DNA of 64,000 nt, taken from Haliotis rufescens. Taxonomy: Eukaryota. Position 1 is the stretch's first letter; each line of letters opens with the position of its first letter. The notes below the pieces were generated by a model. It searched no databases. It saw only the letters and a list, made by a program, of their open reading frames with translations, and was not told where the DNA came from. Both the position numbers and the translations under genes were made by a program. The stretch covers positions 84,444,001 to 84,508,000 of the forward strand of contig NW_025963779.1 in assembly GCF_023055435.1 (NCBI RefSeq). Direction: 5' to 3'. This document shows, one piece after another, positions 2,266 through 41,030 of this stretch.

Positions 2266-2699
2266 TGTTCCTTATATTATCATGACATCAGTCACTGGTT
2301 TGCCTGGCCTAGATTCGATTATTTACAGACCCCGTCATATTGTCAGAATATTACTAAGTTTGGCATATGCGTCCTGACTGTAATTGGTTCGTGTCGCAAT
2401 GAAGGAAACGCTTTCATTGTACATGGGTTGGCATTGTCGGACTTAATATACGGGAATGTCTTGAGAATTCCCATTGCAGCAGAATGTATCAGAACAGCAG
2501 GAGCCGTGTTGCTTGAACCAGACTCGACCTCGATAGTCCCACATGTTGACATCTCCTTCATGTAGCCTACCTGCCATGATCTCGCCATTGACGTATGAAA
2601 TAATACCGAAAATGGAGGTTGTCATTATTGACAGTGTAGGCCCCATTTCGATGTCTGTACATTTATACCGACCTGACTGTGGCGGCACCGACGTTTCCG

Positions 2700-3205
2700 A
2701 CTCTATGTGTGTACTAGATAATATAACTGTTTCACTGTCTTTCCGACTCTATGGGTGTACTAGATAATATGACTGTTTCACTGTCTTTCAGACTCTATGT
2801 GTGTACTAGATAATATGACTGTTTCACTGTCTTTCAGACTCTATGTGTGTACTAGATAATATGACTGTTTCACTGTCTTTCAGACTCTATGTGTGTACTA
2901 GATAATATGACTGTTTCACTGTCTTTCAGACTATATGTGTGTACTAGATAATATGACTGTTTCACTGTCTTTCAGACTATATGTGTGTACTAGATAATAT
3001 GACTGTTTCACTGTCTTTCCGACTCTATGGGTGTACTAGATAATATGACTGTTTAACTGTCTTTCAGACTCTATGTGTGTACTAGATAATATGACTGTTT
3101 CACTGTCTTTCAGACTCTATATGTGTACTAGATAGTATGACTGTTTAACTGTCTTTCCGACTCTATGTGTGTACTAGATAATATGACTGTTTCACTGTCT
3201 TTCAG
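2700..3205 (+). repeat. 46-bp splice-acceptor minisatellite, 11 units (A1 intron 1)
   Basis: Unit ACTCTATGTGTGTACTAGATAATATGACTGTTTCACTGTCTTTCAG; the last unit supplies the exon 2 acceptor. Confidence 0.97.
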
Positions 3206-3908
3206 ACGCGGTCCTATGTCAGAATAACTTCAACGATGAGTGGAAGTACGCGGCCCCTGGCTCGGGATGCAAGAGGTTCATCAATTGCTATGGTCAGGAT
3301 TACCATGGAATGCTTCAGTGTCCCGAGACGACTCTCTTCAATGAAAACACCCAGAGGTGTGAATACCTACTAGATTTCAACTGTCAGGTAGCCCTCAACC
3401 AAACCCCAGGTAACGAAACATACATGATGCATATGATATTAATTATTTCGTAGCAATAGTGAAATATCGTTGTCATCTCAGACGAGAACATTAATATAAT
3501 CTGATTGATTGTTTTGTGTATTCAACTAAGCATTGCCTAGCAACTGGTTATCATTTACAGTTCAGATTGACAATGTACACCCGTTTTGTGAACAGAAAGA
3601 ATTCTGAGACGTAACTTTCTTTATTCCCCGAATGCACAAGATGCTTCACGGGACCGTGACTGTCTTTTCAAATGGCTTGCTACGTTGGCAGGTTGAATAA
3701 TCTTTTAAGTCATATAGTCTATATCAGCTATTTCAGTAACTAGTATTTATAAACTTAGTAGAACCCAGTTTCCGCTAATAACCGTTGAATGCTTGAAGAT
3801 GATCAACAGCGGACACGGGGTACGTTCCCGAAGCAAGAGAGTAAACTGACTTCGAAGATCCAATTTTCTTCTTGCCGAACTAGGCTGGAATTATGGAGTT
3901 ATATCTTG

Positions 3909-4074
3909 AGTGAGTGAGTGAGTATGGTTTTACGCCGCTTTTAGCAATATCCCAGCAATATCACGGCGGTGGGCACCAGAAATGGGCTTCACACATTGTA
4001 CCCATGTCGGGAATGGAACCCGGTTCTTCGGCGTGACGAGCAAACGCTTTAACCACAAGGCTACCCGACCGCCC
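3909..4074 (-). mobile_element. tRNA-derived SINE (~170 bp, (CACT)n tail) nested in the MITE; duplicated at 13411-13576 and 22533-22695
   Basis: Pol III A/B boxes on the minus strand; 13-bp TSD GAGTTATATCTTG; empty site in A4. Confidence 0.88.
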
Positions 4075-9811: not shown

Positions 9812-12800
9812 ATGGCGTCAGCGGTTCTTGGCTTGCTGTTGGGATGCCTGGCAATGTCCAGTGCACAAGTGCCAGAAGAACAGTGTAAGTAGAATTGTAT
9901 TGAACTTGTCAGGAGTTATGGTAAAGTGGGTTGTACTTCGCTTCCAAAAGATTATTGCACTCATTGCATGTGTGTGTGTGCGTGCGTGCTTGCTTGCTTN
10001 NNNNNNNNNNNNNNNNNNNNNNNNNNNNNNNNNNNNNNNNNNNNNNNNNNNNNNNNNNNNNNNNNNNNNNNNNNNNNNNNNNNNNNNNNNNNNNNNNNNN
10101 NNNNNNNNNNNNNNNNNNNNNNNNNNNNNNNNNNNNNNNNNNACGACCAATCCTTGTTTTATACCTTTACTGCCGAGCGTTAGACAGGGTCACACTAAGT
10201 ACCATTTTTTGTATGCCCGACTGTCCACCGACCACCCGCTCTAAGGCAAAAACCTCTGTCCACTCAACATTTTGGCATAAGCGGTTGTTGTGTTGGAAGG
10301 GAAGATTTGTCGAAGGTGGACCTATCACGGCAACATTCACTACTCAGAGCGCTGGGTATACACAGTGGGGTACTTGTGAGTCAGTGTGCTTCTGTTCAGC
10401 ACGAAGAGCACTATCATCTGTTTCGACACAGTTTGTAAGAAAATACGTGAGTATATTTGGACAATAAAGGCAGTCGCAGCGCTAACACCACGAGGTGAAA
10501 CAAGGCCCACAATACATCCGCAGCTAGAGATAAGCGAGGGCACATTCGCTTAGGTGTATACTCCTTGTGTCGAACCCGCTTGTGTCGTGCACCGTGGGAA
10601 TTCCGGGTAAGAATAGGTCCATATCAACCTATGCTTTTCGGACAAGGCGACTAAATGAATAGGGTGGTCGGACTCTGTGCATGGGTTGTTAGTGAGTTGA
10701 CGGCGCGGATCGTTGTTTGATCAAGGGTTTAACATCCAAGGCCTCAGTAGGACATTATCAAATTTGACGCATCCGTGACAAAAATGATGTCACATACATT
10801 CCTTCTTTTGATTTGTACCATATGTTTCCGTTTTCCAGGTGAACAATTGACTTACCTTTGCATGTGTTTGTGACGGGTGCCACCGGTGGGGCAGGATACG
10901 CTCATCTTTTCGTGAACATCTGGCATCATGACTATTTGGTAGTGATTCATAATCACTTGCTCATGATATAGTCGGAATCGTACAATCGACTCTGGTAGAT
11001 TTGTTATGAATATGGAAAGGGATTTGTTGCTTATATTATCATGACATCAATTACTGGTTTGTCTGGCCTAGATTCGATTATTTACAGGCCCCGTCATATT
11101 GTCAGAATTTTGCTAAGTTTGGCATATGCGTCCTGACTGTAATTGGTTCGTGTCGCAATGAAGGAAACGCTTTCATTGTACATGGGTTGGCATTGTCGGA
11201 CTTAATATACGGGAATGTCTTGAGAATTCCCATTGCAGCAGAAGATATCAGAACAGCAGGAGCCGTGTTGCTGGAACCAGACTCGACCTCGATAGTCCCA
11301 CATGTTGACATCTCCTTCATGTAGCCTACGTACCATGATCTCGCCATTGACGTATCAAATAATACCGAAAATGGAGCTTGTCATTATTGACAGTGTAGGA
11401 CCCATTTCGATGTCTGTACATTTATACCGACCTGACTGTGGCGGCACCGACGTTTCCGACTCTATGTGTGTACTAGATAATATGACTGTTTCACTGTCTT
11501 TCCGACTCTATGTGTGTACTAGATAATATAACTGTTTCACTGTCTTTCCGACTCTATGTGTGTACTAGATAATATGACTGTTTCACTGTCTTTCCGACTC
11601 TATGTGTGTACTAGATAATATGACTGTTTCACTGTCTTTCAGACTCTATGTGTGTACTAGATAATATGACTGTTTCACTGTCTTTCAGACTCTATGTGTG
11701 TACTAGATAATATGACTGTTTCACTGTCTTTCAGACTCTATGTGTGTACTAGATAATATAACTGTTTCACTGTCTTTCCGACTCTATGTGAGTACTAGAT
11801 AATATGACTGTTGCACTGTCTTTCAGACTATATGTGTGTACTAGATAATATGACTGTTTCACTGTCTTTCAGACTCTATGTGTGTACTAGATAATATGAC
11901 TGTTTAACTGTCTTTCAGACTCTATGTGTGTACTAGATAATATGACTGTTTAACTGTCTTTCAGACTCTATGTGTGTACTAGATAATATGACTGTTTAAC
12001 TGTCTTTCAGACTCTATGTGTGTACTAAATAATATGACTGTTTCACTGTCTTTCAGACTCTATGTGTGTACTAGATAATATAACTGTTTCACTGTCTTTC
12101 AGACTCTATGTGTGTACTAGATAATATGACTGTTTAACTGTCTTTCAGACTCTATGTGTGTACTAGATAATATGACTGTTTAACTGTCTTTCCGACTCTA
12201 TGTGTGTACTAGATAATATGACTGTTTCACTGTCTTTCAGACTCTATGTGTGTACTAGATAATATAACTGTTTCACTGTCTTTCAGACTCTATGTGTGTA
12301 CTAGATAATATGACTGTTTCACTGTCTTTCAGACTCTATGTGTGTACTAGATAATATGACTGTTTCACTGTCTTTCAGACTCTATGTGTGTACTAGATAA
12401 TATAACTGTTTCACTGTCTTTCAGACTCTATGTGTGTACTAGATAATATGACTGTTTAACTGTCTTTCAGACTCTATGTGTGTACTAGATAATATAACTG
12501 TTTCACTGTCTTTCAGACTCTATGTGTGTACTAGATAATATGAATGTTTCACTGTCTTTCAGACTCTATGTGTGTACTAGATAATATGAATGTTTCACTG
12601 TCTTTCCGACTCTATGTGTGTACTAGATAATATGACTGTTTCACTGTCTTTCCGACTCTATGTGTGTACTAGATAATATAAATGTTTCACTGTCTTTCAG
12701 ACGCGGTCCTATGTCAGAATAACTTCAACGATGAGTGGAAGTACGCGGCCCCTGGCTCGGGATGCAAGAGGATCATCAATTGTTATGGTCAGGATTACCA

Positions 12801-14833
12801 TGGAATGCTTCAGTGTCCCGAGACGACTCTCTTCAATGAAAACACCCAGAGGTGTGAATACCCATTAGATTTCAACTGTCAGGTAGCCCTCAACGAAAAC
12901 CCAGGTAACGAAACATAAATGATGCATATGATATTATTTATTTCGTAGCAATAGTGAAATAGCGTTGTCATCTCAGACGAGAACATTAATATAATCTGAT
13001 TGATTTTTTTATGTTTTCAACTAAGCATTGCCTAGCAACTGGTTATCATTTACAGTTCAGATTGACAATGTACACCCGTTTTGTGAACAGAAAGAATTCT
13101 GAGACGTAACTTTCTTTATTCCCGGAATGCACAAGATGCTTCACGGGACCGTGACTGTCTTTTCAAATGGCTTGCTACGTGCAACGTTGGCAGGTTGAAT
13201 AATCTTTTAAGTCATATAGTCTATATCAGTTATTTCAGTAACTAGTATTTATAAACTTAGTAGAACCCAGTTGCCGCTAATAACCGTTGAATGCTTTAAG
13301 ATGATCAACAGCGGACACGGGGTACGTTCCCGAAGCAAGAGAGTCAACTGACTTTGAAAGTCCAATTTTCCTCTTGCCGAACTAGGCTGGAATTATGGAG
13401 TTATATCTTGAGTGAGTGAGTGAGTATGGTTTAACGCCGCTTTTAGCAATATCCCAGTAATATCACGGCGGGGGGCACCAGAAATGGGCTTCACACATTG
13501 TACCCATGTCGGCAATCGAACCCGGGTCTTCGGCGTGACGAGCAAACGCTTTAACCACAAGGCTACCCGACCGCCCGAGTTATATCTTGGCTGGCCAAAC
13601 GAGTCTATTCACAGTCCAATCAAAATCGTGTGAGGAATTTGACATCCGGTTCGTTAACTGCCTGGCAGATTTCGGTCGATTGCAGGGTTTGTAAAGCATG
13701 TGTGTCGTCAAATCGGCGTCAACGGATATTTTGCAAATCCTTTCATGTTTCTAATCAAGGTGTTCATGTGATCTGATGCACTTCGAGAAGTAAGACCCAT
13801 TTTTTTACAATATAGATCTTGATTATCGATTGTCTTGACTTCGCGCAGCAACTTTGTTTGAAGCAAGTGCAAGTGATATGAGAAGTGGAATCTGATTGGT
13901 CAAAAGGAGGAACATAGAAGGGAAATAACTCATAATAGCCACTGGTGGCGCAACGATTGAGCCCAGAAATTCCAGCATAGTTTGACAAGGGTGGAAACTG
14001 GGCTTTTACAGTCAACTGACTCTTGCCTCGGGAAGATGGTCACTGGTTGGCCATGAATCCGAAACCCGACCGGAAATACTGTGGCTTTTCCACGGTCCAT
14101 AACAATACACTAAAGGAGGAACCCTCACTCCAACCCTCACTCAACCTAAATAATAAATGTCAACAGGAAGGGACGATCGTGAATCGAGAAAGGAATCGAT
14201 ATCTTGCTATTTTCTTTTTGATATTATCAATCAAGAAATAGCTCTTGAGCATAAAGTATATATTGTTAAGATGCCAGTCTAGTGGTGATGTTGCCAGGAT
14301 TTCCTTCAGGCGGTTTGTTACTAGGTGACTTAAGCAAAATTTCACAAATACGAAATAAACTTAAGGTTTTCGAATGTTATGCCTCCCGTTAAGCCTGATA
14401 ACTAATGTCAGTAGCCTTTAACTTATCAATAATAATATCAAAATATGACATTTTATTATATTTTCTTTCTCTATTTAATGAAATCACATAAGTAGGATTG
14501 ATATTATTTCTATTAATCTCGACTACTGTGAGAAAAAGAACTAACTGATCTTGCTTCAGGGACATAGGCGTGTGATTCGAAGATGGTTACAGTTCTTATG
14601 TGCACGTGATTTCTGTTAAACGCTGTATTGTACGTATGTGTTTGCTTCCAGACTGTGTGACCGGCGTGGCTCCCAACAATTGCTCAGCCTTCACATACTG
14701 CTATCTTAACACCCAGTACAACTTCAGCTGCAACCAAGACCTCTACTACTCTCAGAGCAAACTCACCTGTGTGTACGCCGAGGATCTGACAGAGGATGAC
14801 AAACTCAGATGCAACTTCCGCAACGGACAATAG
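9812..14833 (+). CDS. Secreted chitin-binding type-2 (peritrophin-A/CBM14) double-domain protein, copy A2; join(9812..9884,12701..12904,14652..14833), 152 aa
   Basis: Signal peptide MASAVLGLLLGCLAMSSA. GT-AG phase-1 introns give a continuous frame. Domain 1 is C-X16-C-X5-C-X10-C-X12-C-X7-C and domain 2 is C-X8-C-X5-C-X9-C-X12-C-X13-C, with aromatics in the X5 and X12 loops. TATA-like box at 9722; AATAAA ~35 nt after the stop. Confidence 0.88.
11459..12700 (+). repeat. 46-bp splice-acceptor minisatellite, 27 units (A2 intron 1)
   Basis: 1242 bp = 27 x 46. Confidence 0.97.
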
Positions 14834-20123: not shown

Positions 20124-20184
20124 CTTCATTTAAATGAAGAATTTGCATAAGGTGTGTTTACCAGTAAGTTGGTAGTATATTAAA
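20124..20184 (+). promoter_or_regulatory. A3 core promoter
   Basis: Palindrome 20124-20139, ATTTGCATAAGG at 20141, TATATTAAA at 20176. Confidence 0.55.
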
Positions 20185-20265: not shown

Positions 20266-20353
20266 ATGTTGTCAGCGGTTCTTGGCTTGCTGTTGGGATG
20301 CCTGGCAATGTCCAGTGCACAAGTGCCAAAAGAAGAGTGTAAGTAGAAGTAGA

Positions 20354-20436
<83 letters not shown>

Positions 20437-22030
20437 CCTCTGTCCACTCAACATTTTAGCATAAGCGGTTGTTGTGATGTAAGGGAAGATTTGTCGAAGG
20501 TGGACCTATCACGGCAACATTCACTCAGAGGGCTGGGTATACACACAGGGGTTCACCTATGATCTTCCTGTGGGTCAGTGTGCTTCTGTTCAGCACGAAG
20601 AGCACTATCATCTGTTTCGACACAGTTTGTAAGAAAATACGTGAGTATATTTGGACAATAAGGGCAGTCGGAGCGCTAACACCACGAGGTGAAATAAGGC
20701 CCACAATACATCCGCAGCTAGAGATAAGCGAGGGCACATTCGCTTAGGTGTATACCCCTTTTGTCGAACCCGCTTGTGTCGAACCCGCTTGGGAATTCCG
20801 GGTAAGAATAGGTCCATATCAACCTATGCTTTTCGGACAAGGCGACTAAATGAGTAGGGTGGTCGGACTCTGTGCATGGCTTGATAGTGAGTTGACGGCG
20901 CGGATCGTTGTTCGATCAAGGGTTTAACATCCAAGGCCTCAGTAGGACATTATCAAATTTGACGCATCCGTGACAAAAATGATGTCACATACATTCCCTC
21001 TTTTGACTTGTACCATATGTTCCTGTTTTCCAGGTGAACAATTGACTTACCTTTGCATGTGTTTGTGACGGGTGCCACCGGTGGGGCAGGATACGCTCAT
21101 CTTTTCGTGAACATCTGGCATCATGACTATTTGGTAGTGATTCATAATCACTTGCTCATGATACATTCGGAATCGTACAATCGACTCTGGTAGATTTGTT
21201 ATGAATATGGAAAGGGATTTGTTGCTTATATTATCATGACATCAGTTACTGGTTTGTCTGGCCTAGATTCGATTATTTACAGGCCCCGTCATATTGTCAG
21301 AATATTACTAAGTTTGGCATATGCGTCCTGACTGTAATTGGTTCGTGTCGCAATGAAGGAAACGCTTTCATTGTACATGGGTTGGCATTGTCGGACTAAA
21401 TATACGGGAATATCTTGAGAATTCCCATTGCAGCAGAAGGTATCAGAACAGCAGGAGCCGTGTTGCTGGAACCAGACTCGACCTCGATAGTCCCACATGT
21501 TGACATCTCCTTCATGTAGCCTACCTGCCATGATCTCGCCATTGACGTATGAAATGATAGAGGTTGTCATTATTGACAATGCAGGGCCCATTTCGATGTC
21601 TGTATATTTATACCGACCTGACTGTGGCGGCACCGACGTTTCAGACTCTATGTGTGTACTAGATAATATAACTGTTTCACTGTCTTTCAGACTCTATGTG
21701 TGTACTAGATAATATAACTGTTTCACTGTCTTTCAGACTCTATGTGTGTACCAGATAATATAACTGTTTCACTGTCTTTCAGACTCTGTGTGTACTAGAT
21801 AATATGAATGTTTCACTGTCTTTCAGACGCGGTCCTATGTCTGAATAACTTCAACGATGAGTGGAAGTACGTGGCCCCTGGCTCGGGATGCAAGAGGTTC
21901 ATCAATTGCTATGGTCAGGATTACCATGGAATGCTTCAGTGTCCCGAGACGACTCTCTTCAATGAAAACACCCAGGCGTGTGAATACCTACTAGATTTCA
22001 ACTGTCAGGTAGCCCTCAACGAAAACCCAG
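20266..22030 (+). CDS. CBM14 gene copy A3, exons 1-2 only: join(20266..20338,21827..22030); own exon 3 deleted, may splice into A4 exons
   Basis: Intact promoter, signal peptide MLSAVLGLLLGCLAMSSAQVPKEE and open exon 2 with six Cys. Intron 2 is cut at ~23570, where it joins the 5' UTR of A4. Confidence 0.75.
21645..21826 (+). repeat. 46-bp splice-acceptor minisatellite, 4 units (A3)
   Basis: Same unit; the last has a 2-bp deletion. Confidence 0.95.
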
Positions 22031-23618
22031 GTAACGAAACATAAATGATGCATATGATATTAATTATTTCGTAGCAATAGTGAAATAGCGTTGTCATCTC
22101 AGACGAGAACATTAATATAATCTGATTGATTGTTTTGTGTATTCAACTAAGCATTGCCTAGCAACTGGTTATCATTTACAGTTCAGATTGACAATGTACT
22201 TCCGTTTTGTGAACAGAAAGAATTCTGAGACATGACTTTCTTTATTCCCCGAATGCACAAGATGCTTCACGGGACCGTGACTGTCTTTTCAAATGGCTGA
22301 TTATGTGCAACGTTGGCTGGTTGAATAATCTTTTAAGTCATATAGTCTATATCAGTTATTTCAGTTACTAGTATTTATTAACTTAGTTTAACCCAGTTGC
22401 CGCTGATAACCGTTGAATGCTTGAAGATGATCAACAGCGGACACGGGGTACGTTCCCGAAGCAAGAGAGTCAACTGACTTTGAAAGTCCAATTTTCTTCT
22501 TGCCGAGCTAGGCTGGAATTATGGAGTTATATGAGTGAGTGAGTATGGTTTTACGCCGCTTTTAGCAATATCCCAGTAATATCACGGCGGGGGGCACCAG
22601 AAATAGGCTTCACACATTGTACCCATGTCGGGAATCGAACCCGGTTCTTCGGCGTGACGAGCAAACGCTTTAACCACAAGGCTACCCGACCGCCCGAGTT
22701 ATATCTTGGCTGGCCAAACGAGTCTATTCACAGTCCAATCAAAATCGCGTGAGGAATTTGACATCCGGTTCGTTAACTGCCGGGCAGATTTCGGTCGATT
22801 GCAGGATTTGTAAAGCATGTGTGCCGTCAAATCGGCGTCAACAGATATTTTGCAAATCCTTTCATATTTCTAATCAAGGTGTTTATGTGATCTGATGTAC
22901 TTCGCGAAGTAAGACCCATTTTTTTACAATATAGATCTTGATTATCGATCGGATTGTCTTGACTTGGCGCAGCAACTTTGTTTGAAGCAAGTGCAAGTGA
23001 TATGAGAAGTGGAATCTGATTGGTCAAAAGGAGGAACGTAGAAGGGAAATAACTCATAATAGCCACTGGTGGCGCAACGATTGAGCCCAGAAATTCCAGC
23101 ATAGTTCGACAAGAGTGAAAACTGGGCTTTTACAGTCAGTTGACTCTCTTGCCTCGGGAAGATGGTCACTGGTTGGCCATGAATCCGAAACCCGACCGGA
23201 AATACTGTGTCTTTTCCACGTTCCATAACAATATACTAAAGGAGGAACCCTCACTCACCCAGTAGCTCATCCACCCCTCACTCACCCTGAAGGGTAAATG
23301 TCAACATTTTATATATTATCCATCAAGAAATACCTATGGAGCATATAGAATATATTGTTAAGATGCCAGTCAAGTGGTGATGTTGACAGGATTTCCTTCA
23401 GGCGGTTTGTTACTGCGTGACTTAAGCAAAATTTCACAAATACGATATAAACTTAAGATTTTCGAATGTTATGCCTCCCGTTAAGCCTGATAACTAATGT
23501 CAGTAGCCTTTAACTTATCAATAATAATATCAAAATATGACATTTTATTATATTTTCTTTCTCTATTTACATAGACTCTTCCCCTTCCCTTCTCTCCAGT
23601 AATTCACGCTCAGCAACC

Positions 23619-23661
23619 ATGGTGTCTAGTGCACAAGTGCAAGATGAAAATTGTAAGTAGA

Positions 23662-23711
<50 letters not shown>

Positions 23712-26126
23712 ACGACTGACTCAGAGCTCTGATAGAGGTTGTCATTATTGACAGTGTAGGACCCATTTCGATGTCTGTACATTTATACCGACCTGACTGT
23801 GGCGGCACCGACGTTTCAGACTCTATGTGTGTACTAGATACTATGACTGTTTCACTGTCTTTCAGACTCTATGTGTGTACTAGATAATATGACTGTTTAA
23901 CTGTCTTTCAGACTCTATGTGTGTACTAGATAATATGACTGTTTCACTGTCTTTCAGGCTCTATGTGTGTACTAGATAATATAACTGTTTCACTGTCTTT
24001 CAGACTCTATGTGTGTACTAGATAATATAACTGTTTCACTGTCTTTCAGACTCTATGTGTGTACTAGATAATATGAATGTTTCACTGTCTTTCAGACTCT
24101 ATGTGTGTACTAGATAATATAACTGTTTCACTGTCTTTCAGACGCGGTCCTATGTCTGAATAACTTCAACGATGAGTGGAAGTACGCGGCCCCTGGCTCG
24201 GGATGCAAGAGGTTCATCAATTGTTATGGTCAGGATTACCATGGAATGCTTCCGTGTCCCGAGACGACTCTCTTCAATGAAAACACCCAGAGGTGTGAAT
24301 ACCCAATATATTTCAACTGTCAGGAACCCTTCAACGAAAACCCAGGTAACGAAACATAAATGATGCATATGATATTAATTATTTCGTAGCAATAAGGAAA
24401 TAGCGTTGTCATCTCAAACGAGAACATTAATATAATCTAATTGGTTGTTTTATGTATTCAACTAAGCATTGCCTAGCAACTGGTTATCATTTACAGTTCA
24501 GATTGACAATTGTTTTGTGAACAGAAAGAATTCTGAGACGCGACTTTTTTTATTCACCGAATGCACAAGATGCTTCACGGGACCGTGACTGTCTTTTTAA
24601 ATGGCTGGTTATGTGCAACGTTGGCAGGTTGAATAATCTTTTAAGTCATATAGTCTATATCAGTTATTTCAGTTACTAGTATTTATCAACTTAGTTGAAC
24701 CCAGTTTCCGCTAATAACCGTTGAATGCTTGAAGATGATCAACAGCGGACATGGGGTATGTTCAGCGCATTACTGTTCATCTTCCCGAGGCAAGGGAGTC
24801 AACTAACTTTGAAAGTCCAATTTCCACTCTTGCCGAACTAGGCTGGAATTATGGAGTTATATCTTGGCTGGCCAAACGAGTCTATTCACAGTCCAATCAA
24901 AATCGCGTGAGGAATTTGACATCCGGTTCGTTAACTGCCGGGCAGATTTCGGTCGATTGCAGGATTTGTAAAGCATGTGTGCCGTCAAATCGGCGTCAAC
25001 AGATATTTTGCAAATCCTTCCATATTTCTAATGAAGGTGTTCATGTGATCTGATGTACTTCGCGAAGCAAGACCCGTCTTTACAATATAGATCTTGATTA
25101 TCGATCGGATTGTCTTGACTTGGCGCAGCAACTTTGTTTGAAGCAAGTGCTAGTGATATGAGAAGTGGAATCTGATTGGTCAAAAGGAGGAACGTAGAAG
25201 GGAAATAACTCATAATAGCCACTGGTGGCGCAACGATTGAGCCCAGAAATTCCAGCATAGTTCGACAAGAGTGGAAACTGGGCTTTTACAGTCAGCTGAC
25301 TCTTGCCTCGGGAAGATGGTCACTGGTTGGCCATGAATCCGAAACCCGACCGGAAATACTGTGGCTTCTCAACGGTCCATAACAATACACTAAATAGCTC
25401 ATCCAACCCTCACTCACTCAGTAGCTCATCCACCCCTCACTCACCCTAAAGGATAAATGTCAACAGGAAGGGACGATCGTGAATCGAGAATGGAATCGAT
25501 ATGTTGCTATTTTCCTTTTTATATTATCCATTAAGAAATACTTATAGAGCATATAGTATATATTGTTAAGATGCCAGTTTGGTGGTGATGTTGCCAGGAT
25601 TTCCTTCAGGCGGTTTGTTACTAGGTGACTTGAGCAAAATTTCACAAATACGGAATAAACTTAAGATTTTCGAATGTTATGCCTCCCGTTAAGCCTGATA
25701 ACTAATGTCAGTAGCCTTTAACTTATCAATAATAATATCAAAATATGACATTTTATTATATTTTCTTTCTCTATTTAATGAAATCACATAAGGAAGATTG
25801 ATATTATTTCTATTAATCTCGACCACTGTGAGAAAAAGACAAATTGATATTACTTCAGGGACATAGGCGTGTGATTCGAAGATGGTTACGGTTCTAAGGT
25901 GATTTCTGTTGAACGCTGTATTGTACGTATGTGTTTGCTTCCAGACTGTGTGACCGGCGTGGATTCCTACAATTGCTCAGCCTTCACATACTGCCATCTT
26001 AACACCCAGTACAACTTCTGCTGCAACCAAGACCTCTACTACTCTCAGAGCAAACTCACCTGTGTGTACGCCGAGGATTTGACAGAATATGACAAACTCA
26101 GATGCAACTTCCGCAACGGACAATAG
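23619..26126 (+). CDS. CBM14 gene copy A4: join(23619..23652,24142..24345,25945..26126); signal peptide core deleted, no own promoter (pseudogene or 3' half of an A3-A4 fusion)
   Basis: Exon 1 reads MVSSAQVQDEN, a 39-nt in-frame deletion versus A2/A3/A5. Exons 2 and 3 are open with canonical splice sites. AATAAA at 26161. Confidence 0.7.
23820..24141 (+). repeat. 46-bp splice-acceptor minisatellite, 7 units (A4)
   Basis: 322 bp = 7 x 46. Confidence 0.95.
24778..25318. mobile_element. MITE with ~70-bp TIRs (CATCTTCCCGAGGCAAG...CTTGCCTCGGGAAGATG) in A4 intron 2; homologs at ~3826-4536, ~13328-14038, ~22453-23164
   Basis: Long inverted termini; absent from A5 intron 2; an independent copy lies in B2 intron 1. 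Confidence 0.85.
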
Positions 26127-26776
26127 GATTCAGCACAAGCAATGTATTCTCTGAACTTCAAATAAAGCCATTCAGACAATTATAACTGTGATGCATATAT
26201 TTTCAAACGACGAGCGAGACAATAGTTCGTCTGCTGTCAAGTGAGTGGGGGTCAGCATGGCGTGTTAATGCTGCATCTGCCTGCTGCATCACGGCGGCCT
26301 AAATAACGACTTAAGTTCTGAGAAGGTCGTTAAGTGTGGTGGTCCCAGCCCACCTCGGAGGAATGACACACCTAATAAGTGAGACCTCTGGCGGGGAACG
26401 ACTTCAAAATTCAAAAACACTTCCTTTTTATGCAAATTGTGTGAGTGCTNNNNNNNNNNNNNNNNNNNNNNNNNNNNNNNNNNNNNNNNNNNNNNNNNNN
26501 NNNNNNNNNNNNNNNNNNNNNNNNNNNNNNNNNNNNNNNNNNNNNNNNNNNNNNNNNNNNNNNNNNNNNNNNNNNNNNNNNNNNNNNNNNNNNNNACAAC
26601 TGGTGTCATCTCTCATTTTCAGTGGTTCATTCAAATAATGTTCACCACTATTTTTCCTTTTCCTTTTAATCCAGACTGGTTATTCTCTGGCGTTGAATAT
26701 TCCGTCCTCGTGCTATGCCATCTCATAGAATAGCCTTTGTCGGGCCTACGGTACCGTTACTATCTATATTCTTCCC

Positions 26777-37015: not shown

Positions 37016-40000
37016 ATGGTGTCAGCGGTTCTTGGCTTGCTGTTGGGATGTCTGGCAATGTCCAGTGCACAAGTGCCAGAAGAAGATTGTAAGTAGAATT
37101 GTATTGAACTTGTCAGGAGGTAAAGTGGGTTGTACTTCGCTTCNNNNNNNNNNNNNNNNNNNNNNNNNNNNNNNNNNNNNNNNNNNNNNNNNNNNNNNNN
37201 NNNNNNNNNNNNNNNNNNNNNNNNNNNNNNNNNNNNNNNNNNNNNNNNNNNNNNNNNNNNNNNNNNNNNNNNNNNNNNNNNNNNNNNNNNNNNNNNCCTT
37301 TTAACGTATTTTGGTTTGCTCGACCGTGGATCGAACCACCGACCACCCGTTCTCAGGGAGACGCTCTGTCCACTAAGCGTTTCAGTATGAGCGGTTGTTG
37401 TGATGGAAGATTTGTCGAAAGGTGGAACTGTCACGTCAATATTCACTTATGGCACTAAAAATACACAGTGGGTTATAGGGGGCACTGGTGGCCCAGGCGT
37501 CTAAGGCGCCGCAATTCGCTGTGAAGAGTTACGTCCCTTGGGCACGCCAGAAACCTATGATTGTGGGTTCGAATGTTTCTAGGTTTGTCAGCACCATACC
37601 CGTGCTCGTGGGTTTCACCGAAGTGGTAAACGTCTGAGACCTGCATCACTTCGGGCTTTCCTCCCACATTAAGCTGACATGCCGCGATATGACTGGAATT
37701 CTCAATTCTGGAATTGACTCAAACAATTTCTGAGCAAGGGTCTTATTAGACTCTTTGAAATCTTGGTGGGAAGAGCATGCTCGACTGTGCCTCAAACGTT
37801 TTGAAATGTAGACACAAAAGGCTTGAGCTGCTGGAATATTTCCCGACATAAACTATATCTTTAGCTCAAACGTCTTGGGACAAGTACCCCATGGATCAAG
37901 GAATACAGTTTGTCATGTGGCAAAGCGGTGTTTTCAAATGTTTTGACAGAATTAAACTTTTCTGAATAAAATGTCATTATTTGAGGTTTGAGAATCCAAT
38001 TCCACTACCCAGATATCTTCTGTGAGTATTAACCTAGTCCTTCCTTGATTGTATTAAGGATTATGGTTAATCTTGGAAACATGGCTTCCAGCAGTTGACC
38101 CTAACTCGATCCCTACAGTAGCAGACTTCAGATGTAGTACTGCTCTTCTCCACTTAGACACCTGGTAATTAACAATGGTGAAGACGAAGAACTGCAGACA
38201 ATGGGCCTCTTTAGTTTATGTACTCGTTTTGAGATAATTTTACTTATACGGGTAATACTGTTGAAAAAAACCAGCAAAACTCATCATCTGTTACCCTACA
38301 GTAGTGTAAGAAAATACGTGAGTATATTTTGACAATAACGCCACGCGGTGGAACAAGACACAATTCAACGGCAGAGAACACACCTTGTGTTCCTCCCTTA
38401 TGTGAGAGCACAGTCGTAGAGCTACACATCGTTCACGCCGTGGGGATTCCGGGTAAGAATAGGTCCACAGCCACCCATGTTCTTCCTACAAGGCGACTAA
38501 ATGAATAAGGTGACTTGGTGCCATGGTTGATAGTGAGTTGACGGCACGGAGGGTTGTTCATAATATCAATCACTTGTTTGCCTGGCCCGGATTCCATTAT
38601 TTACAGTTCCCCGTCATATGGTTGGAATATGCTAATATCGCAAGGAAGCATAGGTATTACATGGGTTGACTTTACCCGACGTATGTACGCGAATGTCTTG
38701 AGAATTCCCTTTACAACAGAAGGTATCAGAACAGCAGGGACCGTGTTGTTTGAACCAGAGTCGACCTCGGTAGTCCCACATGTTGACATCTCCTTCATGT
38801 AGCCTACCTGCCATGATCTCGCCATTGACGTATGAAATAATACCGAAAATGGAGGTTGTCATTATTGACAGTGTAGGACCCATTTCGATGTCTGTACATT
38901 TATACCGACCTGACTGTGGCGGCACCGACGTTTCCGACTCTATGTGTGTACTAGATAGTATGACTGTTTCACTGTCTTTCAGACTCTATGTGTGTACTAG
39001 ATAATATGACTGTTTCACTGTCTTTCAGACTCTATGTGTGTACTAGATAATATAACTGTTTCACTGTCTTTCAGACTCTATGTGTGTACTAGATAATATA
39101 ACTGTTTCACTGTCTTTCAGACTCTATGTGTGTACTAGATAATATGACTGTTTCACTGTCTTTCAGACTCTATGTGTGTACTAGATAATATAACTGTTTC
39201 ACTGTCTTTCAGACTCTATGTGTGTACTAGATAATATAACTGTTTCACTGTCTTTCCGACTCTATGTGTGTACTAGATAATATGACTGTTTCACTGTCTT
39301 TCAGACTCTATGTGTGTACTAGATAATATGACTGTTTCACTGTCTTTCAGACTCTATGTGTGTACTAGATAATATGACTGTTTAACTGTCTTTCAGACTC
39401 TATGTGTGTACTAGATAATATGACTGTTTCACTGTCTTTCAGACTCTATGTGTGTACTAGATAATATAACTGTTTCACTGTCTTTCAGACTCTATGTGTG
39501 TACTAGATAATATGACTGTTTAACTGTCTTTCAGACTCTATGTGTGTACTAGATAATATGACTGTTTCACTGTCTTTCAGACTCTATGTGTGTACTAGAT
39601 AATATGACTGTTTAACTGTCTTTCAGACTCTATGTGTGTACTAGATAATATGACTGTTTCACTGTCTTTCAGACGCGGTCCTATGTCAGGATAACTACAA
39701 CGGTGACTGGAAGTACGTGGCCCCTGGCTCGGGATGCAAGAGGTTCATCAATTGTGGTGGCCAGGATTACCACGGAACGCTCCAGTGCCCCGAGACGACT
39801 CTCTTCAATGAAAACACCCAGGATTGTGTATACGCAGCGGATTCCAACTGTCAGGAACCCTTCAACGAAAACCCAGGTAACGAAACATAAGTTTGCGTAT
39901 TATATTAATTATCTTGTAGCACATGCTAAATAGAGTTGTCATTAATAGAATCTGATTAATTGTTTTATGTATTCAATTAGTGAGTGAGTGAGTGAGTATG

Positions 40001-41030
40001 GTTTTACGCCGCTTTTAGCAGTATTCCAGCAATTTCACGGCGGGGGACACCAGAAATGGGCTTCACACATTGTATACATGTCTGGAATCGAACCCGGGCG
40101 AACGCTTTAACCACTGAGCTACCCGACCGCGTCTGTATTCAATTAACCATTGCCTAGCAACTGGTTATTATTTACAATTCAGATTGGCAATGTACATCCG
40201 TTTTGTGAAAAAAGGAATTCGGAGATGTGACTTAATTCCCCGAATGGACAGGAAGTGTTAAGGGACCATGACTGTCTTTTCAAATGGCTGGTTATGTAAA
40301 AAGTTGGCGGATGAATAGACTTTTACTTCATGTATTCTATTCAGTTATTTCAGTCATTAATAAACTAGTATGAACATATAATATTTTCGCTAATGACCGT
40401 TGAATGAACTACAGCGGACACGGAATACGTTTACAAAACGAAGTAGCTCATCCACCCCTCACTCAACCGAAAGGATAAATTTTAACAGGTTGGGACGATC
40501 GTGAATCGAGAATGGAATCAATATGTTGCCATTTTTTAATGATATTTTACATGAATAAAGACATATCCGTTGAGAAACAGTGACGGTAGAAGATATTGTT
40601 AGGATGCCAATATGACTTCCTTCAGTTTTAATGTTACTTAGTGTAAGGACTAATTTCAGTAACCTTTAACTTAACAAAACCACATTTTATAATATGTGTT
40701 TTCTATTTAACGAAATAACCTGCTAAATTGATAGTATTAGAAGGATTCTGACTACGGTGAAAAGGTCTTATGTTTATAGATAAAGGGACCTACAGTCGAT
40801 ATGGTTACAATTCTGTGATTTCTGTTGAACGCTGTATTGTACGTATGTGTTTGCTTCCAGACTGTGTGACCGGCGTGGATCCCTACAATTGCTCAGCTTT
40901 CACCTACTGCCATCTTAACACCCAGTACAACTTCAGCTGCAACCAAGACCTCTACTACTCTCAGAGCAAACTCATCTGTGTGTACGCTGAAGATCTGACG
41001 GAGGACGACAAATACCTGTGCGGCTTCTAG
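37016..41030 (+). CDS. Secreted CBM14 double-domain protein, copy A5; join(37016..37088,39673..39876,40861..41030), 148 aa
   Basis: MVSAVLGLLLGCLAMSSAQVPEED / AVLCQDNYNGDWKYVAPGSGCKRFINCGGQDYHGTLQCPETTLFNENTQDCVYAADSNCQEPFNENP / DCVTGVDPYNC...DDKYLCGF*. Canonical splice sites, 12 Cys retained, TATA-like box at 36929, AATAAA ~41090. Confidence 0.88.
37478..37700 (+). mobile_element. tRNA-derived SINE with V-SINE-like core (GGGCTTTCCTCCCACA); other copies ~49900-50102 and ~57000-57213
   Basis: Three dispersed copies share the core and the GATAT..CTGGAA...GCGGCGTTAAA tail. Confidence 0.65.
38937..39672 (+). repeat. 46-bp splice-acceptor minisatellite, 16 units (A5)
   Basis: 736 bp = 16 x 46. 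Confidence 0.97.
39980..40133 (-). mobile_element. tRNA-derived SINE in A5 intron 2
   Basis: Same family; TSD TGTATTCAATTA; empty site in A1-A4. Confidence 0.85.

Follow-up and report, generated by a model that had tools for sequence, protein, structure and literature searches.

What does a tandem gene array produce when the front of one copy becomes joined to the body of the next? We addressed this question for a 64,000-nucleotide (nt) stretch of the Haliotis rufescens genome (NW_025963779.1, positions 84,444,001–84,508,000), here called the window, in which five copies (A1–A5) of a three-exon gene lie in tandem; a sixth, A0, lies just upstream. Feature coordinates are window positions unless another sequence is named, and the parts of the fused gene lie on the forward strand. 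The array copies are 92–97% identical, and an intact gene consists of a signal-like exon 1 followed by two phase-1 exons, each encoding one CBM14 (peritrophin-A) domain, for a product of 148–152 amino acids (aa). We find that A3 and A4 are fused in the DNA, and we judge, with a probability of about 0.5, that the joined gene makes a five-exon, predicted secreted protein of 246 aa with three CBM14 domains, as its splice signals and reading frame suggest.

A3 and A4 are joined through a short filler

A first-pass annotation of the stretch had proposed that a deletion fused intron 2 of A3 directly to the 5′ untranslated region (UTR) of A4 at ~23570. The junction letters that it quoted are present at 23563–23584, and the fusion stands, but it is not quite direct: homology to intron 2 of A1, A2, and A4 is 100% through position 23569 of A3, homology to the A4 5′ UTR begins at 23575, and a 5-nt filler (23570–23574) separates the two. 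A3 intron 2 (22031–23569) is thus cut off at 23569.

The elements that the annotation listed as lost or retained were borne out. A3 exon 3 is missing, because the genome holds six close exon-2 matches but five exon-3 matches (plus one 35% exon-2 match elsewhere). No AATAAA or ATTAAA occurs in A3 intron 1 or between the two exon-2 copies of the fused gene (2a from A3 and 2b from A4), as expected if the A3 polyadenylation site is gone; the equivalent interval in intact neighbors measures 4.3–5.7 kb, in keeping with loss of the spacer; and no TATA-like site, present in four of the five other copies, lies within 130 nt before the A4 ATG, which agrees with loss of the A4 promoter. The front of A3 is kept, with a TATA-like box (20176–20182, at the same place in A0, A2, and A5) that is the likely promoter of the fused gene and an exon 1 whose coding part (20266–20338) encodes a hydrophobic N-terminus, predicted to be a signal peptide, and ends in a phase-1 donor. 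Exons 2 and 3 of A4 are open and are followed by an AATAAA polyadenylation signal (26161–26166).

The filler, a 39-nt deletion in A4 exon 1, and the 489-nt intron 1 of A4 (23653–24141, shortened from the 1232–2816 nt seen in A0, A2, and A3 and containing a GT repeat and seven 46-nt units) were found in no other copy. Four sequencing runs were compared at 21790–23661. In one of them, X5, which carries a different organism label, is of a kind not on record, and covers all 30 bins, a single 145-nt contig aligns to 23540–23661 with one difference and no gap, spanning the filler, the UTR, and the 39-nt deletion. X5 is not the source of the window, because at exon 2 its contig departs from A3 at 14 positions. 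No junction-spanning piece was present in the other three compared runs among the matches listed. With high confidence, the A3–A4 fusion is a real feature of the DNA.

The X5 run represents exon 2 (21799–22231) by one 435-nt contig, at a depth ~2.5-fold that of the junction contig, in which A2-type and A4-type letters are mixed. This pattern may reflect fewer or homogenized copies in that organism (organism B), with the proviso that depth measures copy number poorly.

A remnant of A4 exon 1 provides a candidate internal exon

A4 exon 1 survives at 23575–23652, where 44 nt of former A4 5′ UTR and 34 nt of A4 exon 1 are followed by a GTAAGT donor identical to every intact exon-1 donor. The 39 nt missing from this exon were lost in frame between two 4-nt microhomologies and correspond to the hydrophobic core of the signal peptide, leaving the remnant with a mean hydropathy of −0.64 compared to 0.99 for A3 exon 1. 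The last two bases of the filler create a new AG (23574), which is preceded by a 66-nt AG-free, pyrimidine-rich tract and has a branch-point-like site 27 nt upstream. Used as an acceptor, this AG would define a stop-free 78-nt exon of phase 1-1 coding for a 26-aa Ser-rich linker. The fused intron contains 118 AGs and, ranked by pyrimidines in the 20 nt upstream, the one at 23599 comes first and the one at 23574 second; 4 of the 95 AGs upstream of the remnant donor yield in-frame, stop-free exons (78, 39, 15, and 9 nt).

The first-pass annotation had passed over this remnant and joined four exons: 20266–20338, 21827–22030 (exon 2a, phase 1-1, CBM14 domain 1), 24142–24345 (exon 2b, phase 1-1, CBM14 domain 2), and 25945–26126 (exon 3 of A4, CBM14 domain 3 and the stop). 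These exons have GT/AG ends and, as it stated, join in phase 1 throughout and form one open frame of 220 aa plus stop (663 nt); the two-domain isoforms that it proposed, in which either exon 2 is skipped, are both open frames of 152 aa. Scored singly, the three domain exons reach 28.2, 29.3, and 25.5 bits against Pfam CBM_14 (PF01607; cut-off 22.1 bits). Inclusion of the remnant also gives an open frame, of 246 aa, with the three domains and the Ser-rich linker. The capacity of the locus to encode three CBM14 domains was therefore correctly recognized, but the splice signals and the RefSeq model favor 246 aa over the 220-aa product. We derived the five-exon translation prior to any database comparison, and it is letter-for-letter the same as RefSeq model XP_048237269.1 (LOC125372154, uncharacterized, Haliotis rufescens). 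This match is agreement rather than proof, because the model is a prediction computed on the same DNA. As a further route into exon 2b we tried the upstream acceptors of its 46-nt repeat; the two in-frame options examined (3 and 6 units) contain stops.

The 246-aa protein (P0004) scores 59.7 bits against CBM_14 over three stretches. Cysteine gaps are 16-5-10-12-7 in domains 1 and 2, and domain 3 has seven cysteines. AlphaFold2, run with a 34-row alignment, predicted three confident domains (mean predicted local distance difference test score, pLDDT, of 75.6) with no confident packing between them (predicted template-modeling score of 0.36) and a linker with pLDDT below 50 over residues 87–91 and 93–114; a single-sequence prediction was of low confidence (pLDDT 35.7). 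Matches to the structure model were EHEP, Avr4, Der p 23, and the CBM14 domain of chitotriosidase. The fused protein thus has the six-cysteine pattern and, in the predicted model, the CBM14 fold. A protein search with the linker region returned no candidate.

We propose that a rearrangement in the six-copy array joined the front of A3 to A4, and that the A3 promoter would drive a single transcript in which the filler AG pairs with the surviving A4 exon-1 donor, turning the old 5′ UTR and exon 1 into the 78-nt internal exon. The 39-nt in-frame deletion would remove what could otherwise be a second, internal signal core and leave a flexible, polar linker. Like its two-domain parents, the resulting secreted, disulfide-bonded protein may bind chitin or some other polymer, now with an additional binding domain, and frameshifted and skipped isoforms probably occur alongside it.

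Transcript data and competing explanations

Two presumed RNA runs include exon 2 and contain contigs in which exon 1 is joined to it, and the gene family appears to be transcribed. In these two RNA-labelled contig sets, over 21790–23661, neither a 22030→23575 joint nor an exon 2→exon 2 joint occurs among the matches listed, and RNA depth over 23554–23661 is explicable by ordinary exon-1 contigs. One low-depth contig of run X19 differs from A3 exon 2 at 2 of 115 letters, a weak hint that A3 exon 2 is expressed. The two runs did not show A4/A5-type letters at 22010–22015, and a small remainder in X19 (11 of 1676 depth units) carries the A3/A4 letter at 21842; these paralogue-letter results are silent on expression, because contigs drop rare variants and the animals may lack the allele. 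A run search found part of the stretch in 20 of 24 listed runs, none of which held at least half of its words and none of which was an RNA run.

Several observations weigh against a 246-aa product, and some of them bear on a different outcome, in which the fused locus arose as a by-product of turnover in the array and is decaying: it would be weakly transcribed, or spliced mostly via the frameshifting acceptor at 23599 and cleared by nonsense-mediated decay, and would make no useful protein. The splice that includes the 78-nt exon is one that we infer from sequence signals and a computed gene model, because no transcript across the junction was seen among the matches listed. The rival AG within the old A4 UTR (23598–23599) has pyrimidines at 20 of the 20 preceding positions, compared to 16 of 20 for 23574, and a branch-point-like site 30 nt upstream; its use would shift the frame through a 53-nt exon and end translation after 115 aa, at a stop 186 nt ahead of the last junction, which makes this strong competitor a point for decay. 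A private Ser>Cys change in A4 exon 3 leaves an odd cysteine in domain 3 and costs one N-glycosylation sequon. It is among the private changes in the A4 exons (five amino-acid and two silent), which also include a Gln>Pro beside a Cys, but these do not single out A4, because intact A0 (6 vs 2) and A2 (3 vs 1) are similar. The arrangement that keeps the frame open also has ordinary explanations. An acceptor-like site is cheap here, because the unfused introns carry an AG 14 nt beyond the equivalent point, and the seemingly lucky frame is weak evidence of selection, because five of the six copies have this UTR frame open and a break at any of 20 among 61 possible UTR positions would be in frame and free of stops. 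By reasoning, the chance that a deletion is in frame is about one in three, and such deletions arise without benefit, because similar microhomology deletions in A1 destroy exon 1 and the TATA box. Evidence for selection on the fused locus is thin. The 5′ end of A4 bears three deletions, and the comparable damage to A1 likewise favors decay; five exons free of stops and frameshifts, an intact A3 promoter region, and a junction that a run labelled as a different organism shares at ~99% identity argue the other way. We regard decay as possible but doubtful.

Skipping of the remnant would join exon 2a to exon 2b in the 220-aa three-domain protein, or yield the two-domain 152-aa forms, and the openness of all these frames speaks for it. 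Transcripts that run into a downstream gene after rearrangements in human cancer are described as splicing mostly to exon 2, exon 1 being without an acceptor (PMC4987284); the locus studied here would be an exception to that pattern, because the breakpoint supplied an acceptor. Competition between the two acceptors could weaken definition of the remnant exon. With two acceptor candidates, a consensus donor, and a place in the RefSeq model, however, the remnant is unlikely to be passed over. We consider it very improbable that the junction reflects misassembly or a variant carried by a single animal. It does lie in an array of near-identical copies, and the longest listed contig of run X1 enters other sequence after 23569, as an unfused copy would. 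The X5 contig, in addition, has just 30 intron-2 letters to the left of the filler (35 to the left of the UTR), although a left arm of that length is what we would expect where a 31-letter graph forks. Misassembly is unlikely because the filler, the 39-nt deletion, and the shortened intron 1 of A4 cannot arise from mis-joined reads, and because X5 has them. Our ranking places the five-exon 246-aa form ahead of decay and decay ahead of the four-exon form.

Origin of the fused gene

We class the fused locus as a young gene duplicate, chimeric or partial, of a known kind. Close relatives under the names of three other Haliotis species (H. cracherodii, H. rubra, and H. asinina) carry two domains, as do the sibling copies, which makes three domains the derived state. 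Among proteins of 135–431 aa, P0004 has five close clusters, whose representatives cover 54–56% of it, and the only 246-aa family member seen is P0004 itself. We considered H. rubra P0003 (219 aa) as a parallel three-domain form and rejected it, as it has two CBM_14 stretches and a tail.

An A3–A4 deletion, as originally proposed, accounts for the fused layout, but so does a partial tandem duplication (3353 nt) followed by gene conversion, and the two cannot be told apart. At 49 informative sites, A3 and A4 group together at 12, A0 and A4 at 10, A1 and A2 at 8, and A1 and A3 at 6. A short interspersed nuclear element (SINE)-like insertion occupies one shared intron-2 site in A1 (3907–4074), A2 (13409–13576), and A3 (22532–22695, unstranded, with a target-site duplication) and is absent from A4 and A0. 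The end of the exon-1 remnant is closer to A0 and to P0006, an intact H. cracherodii protein, than to A3; it differs at one residue from P0006 and at three from A3. The SINE, which places A3 with A1 and A2, and the likeness of this exon-1 end to P0006 and A0 make two donors somewhat more probable, within an array that is a mosaic blurred by conversion. A related SINE-like element sits at a different intron-2 site in A5 (39981–40130), and such elements help to order the duplications.

The first-pass description of the event as exon shuffling was overstated. Phase 1-1 symmetry holds for exon 2a, exon 2b, and the 78-nt exon, and each part of the fused gene has its counterpart in a paralogue of the array, with none from an unrelated gene; a phase 1-1 domain exon was duplicated inside a single family, with no foreign exon recruited, and this is not exon shuffling in the strict sense. 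Chimeric and partial duplicates, including Sdic, have been reviewed, together with novel exons drawn from exonic, intronic, or intergenic sequence (Katju 2012, PMC3449122). The abalone locus resembles the duplicates described there in that rearranged adjacent copies juxtapose gene fragments. It differs from them in that both donors are paralogues of one family and in that the new exon would be a paralogue 5′ UTR plus exon 1, with an acceptor formed by the breakpoint and the signal core stripped out. The gene is already present as an uncharacterized model whose RefSeq record gives neither origin nor function, and we did not find its origin in print: no paper listed in the literature searches concerned the locus, and a full-text search for LOC125372154 returned zero papers. 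Abalone shell-proteome tables (PMC6003135) might hold the family.

The route to a new gene is neat but familiar. As a case of domain addition it is unusually legible, as the parent copies adjoin, the breakpoint can be placed with single-base precision, and every repair step (a new acceptor, a UTR read as code, and loss of the signal core) is visible. It shows how an exon 1, which gene fusions usually skip because it lacks an acceptor, could turn into an internal linker.

Comparison with EHEP and two-domain relatives

The two-domain Haliotis proteins A0, A2, A5, P0002, P0003, P0006, and P0009 are alike in their signal-like N-terminus, cysteine spacing, and acidic isoelectric point (4.1–4.5); compared to them, the fused protein has an extra copy of domain 1 and the 26-aa linker. 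This abalone is a kelp grazer. As a possible functional parallel, EHEP of Aplysia kurodai (PDB 8IN3) is described as a three-peritrophin-A protein that binds phlorotannin at the center of a triangle of domains (PMC10619976, PMC5271319). The predicted fused protein shares with EHEP the layout of a secreted gastropod protein of ~25 kDa with three peritrophin-A domains and linkers, and a similar composition (20 Cys and 18 Tyr compared to 19 Cys and 19 Tyr in EHEP). EHEP was also the top match in both fold searches with the fused-protein model. Only single domains superpose, however (Z 6.4, root-mean-square deviation 3.0 over 62 residues), in a tie with Avr4 (6.3) and Der p 23 (6.2), and comparison of the whole chains gave a template-modeling score of 0.21 and a root-mean-square deviation of about 21. 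P0004 alone had no sequence match to EHEP at E ≤ 10, and a profile reached EHEP with E 2e-24 when its alignment was padded with generic multi-domain proteins and with E 0.14 when built from the family only. P0004 is acidic (net charge −11 at pH 5.5), whereas the EHEP pocket is described as positive below pH 6.

We reject EHEP as an orthologue for now, as the match is to a single domain and is tied with other CBM14 proteins, and we treat it as a lead, an apparent analogue in layout at the level of the generic domain; any three-domain CBM14 protein might rank EHEP first. That a three-domain protein recently assembled from two two-domain genes is converging on a tannin-trapping EHEP, with selection keeping the new acceptor and the signal-core deletion because they make a linker out of a first exon, strikes us as most unlikely. 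Were the protein to bind polyphenols from algae, a defense reported to date from sea hares alone would have arisen a second time, independently, which is a lead only. The CBM14 motif does not settle chitin binding either, because EHEP has the motif and is reported not to have bound chitin (PMC5271319).

Other features of the array

Translations of A0, A2, and A5 are identical to database proteins named Haliotis rufescens. A0, at L011:3869-7141 (G000:C1), is an intact copy identical to P0005 that the earlier annotation overlooked. In A1 (1060–1210), the TATA box is gone, as are the second half of exon 1 and its donor, through a microhomology deletion; exons 2 and 3 are intact and are matched by P0007, a database model of 132 aa that lacks a signal peptide.

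Intron 1 ends in a 46-nt tandem repeat that amounts to duplicated splice acceptors, with 1, 11, 27, 4, 7, and 16 units in A0–A5, respectively. The arrays in the window lie at 2694–3205, 11453–12700, 21639–21826 (the four units of A3, all of which end in an exon-2 acceptor copy), 23814–24141, and 38931–39672. Most units end in AG, and the listed RNA contigs join at the last unit despite up to 19 similar AGs upstream.

A distant (35%) CBM14 exon match lies at G000:C1:84563786-84563956, ~56 kb downstream of the window. Together with the further two-domain proteins of ~150 aa P0022, P0069, and P0070, it suggests a larger and older CBM14 cluster.

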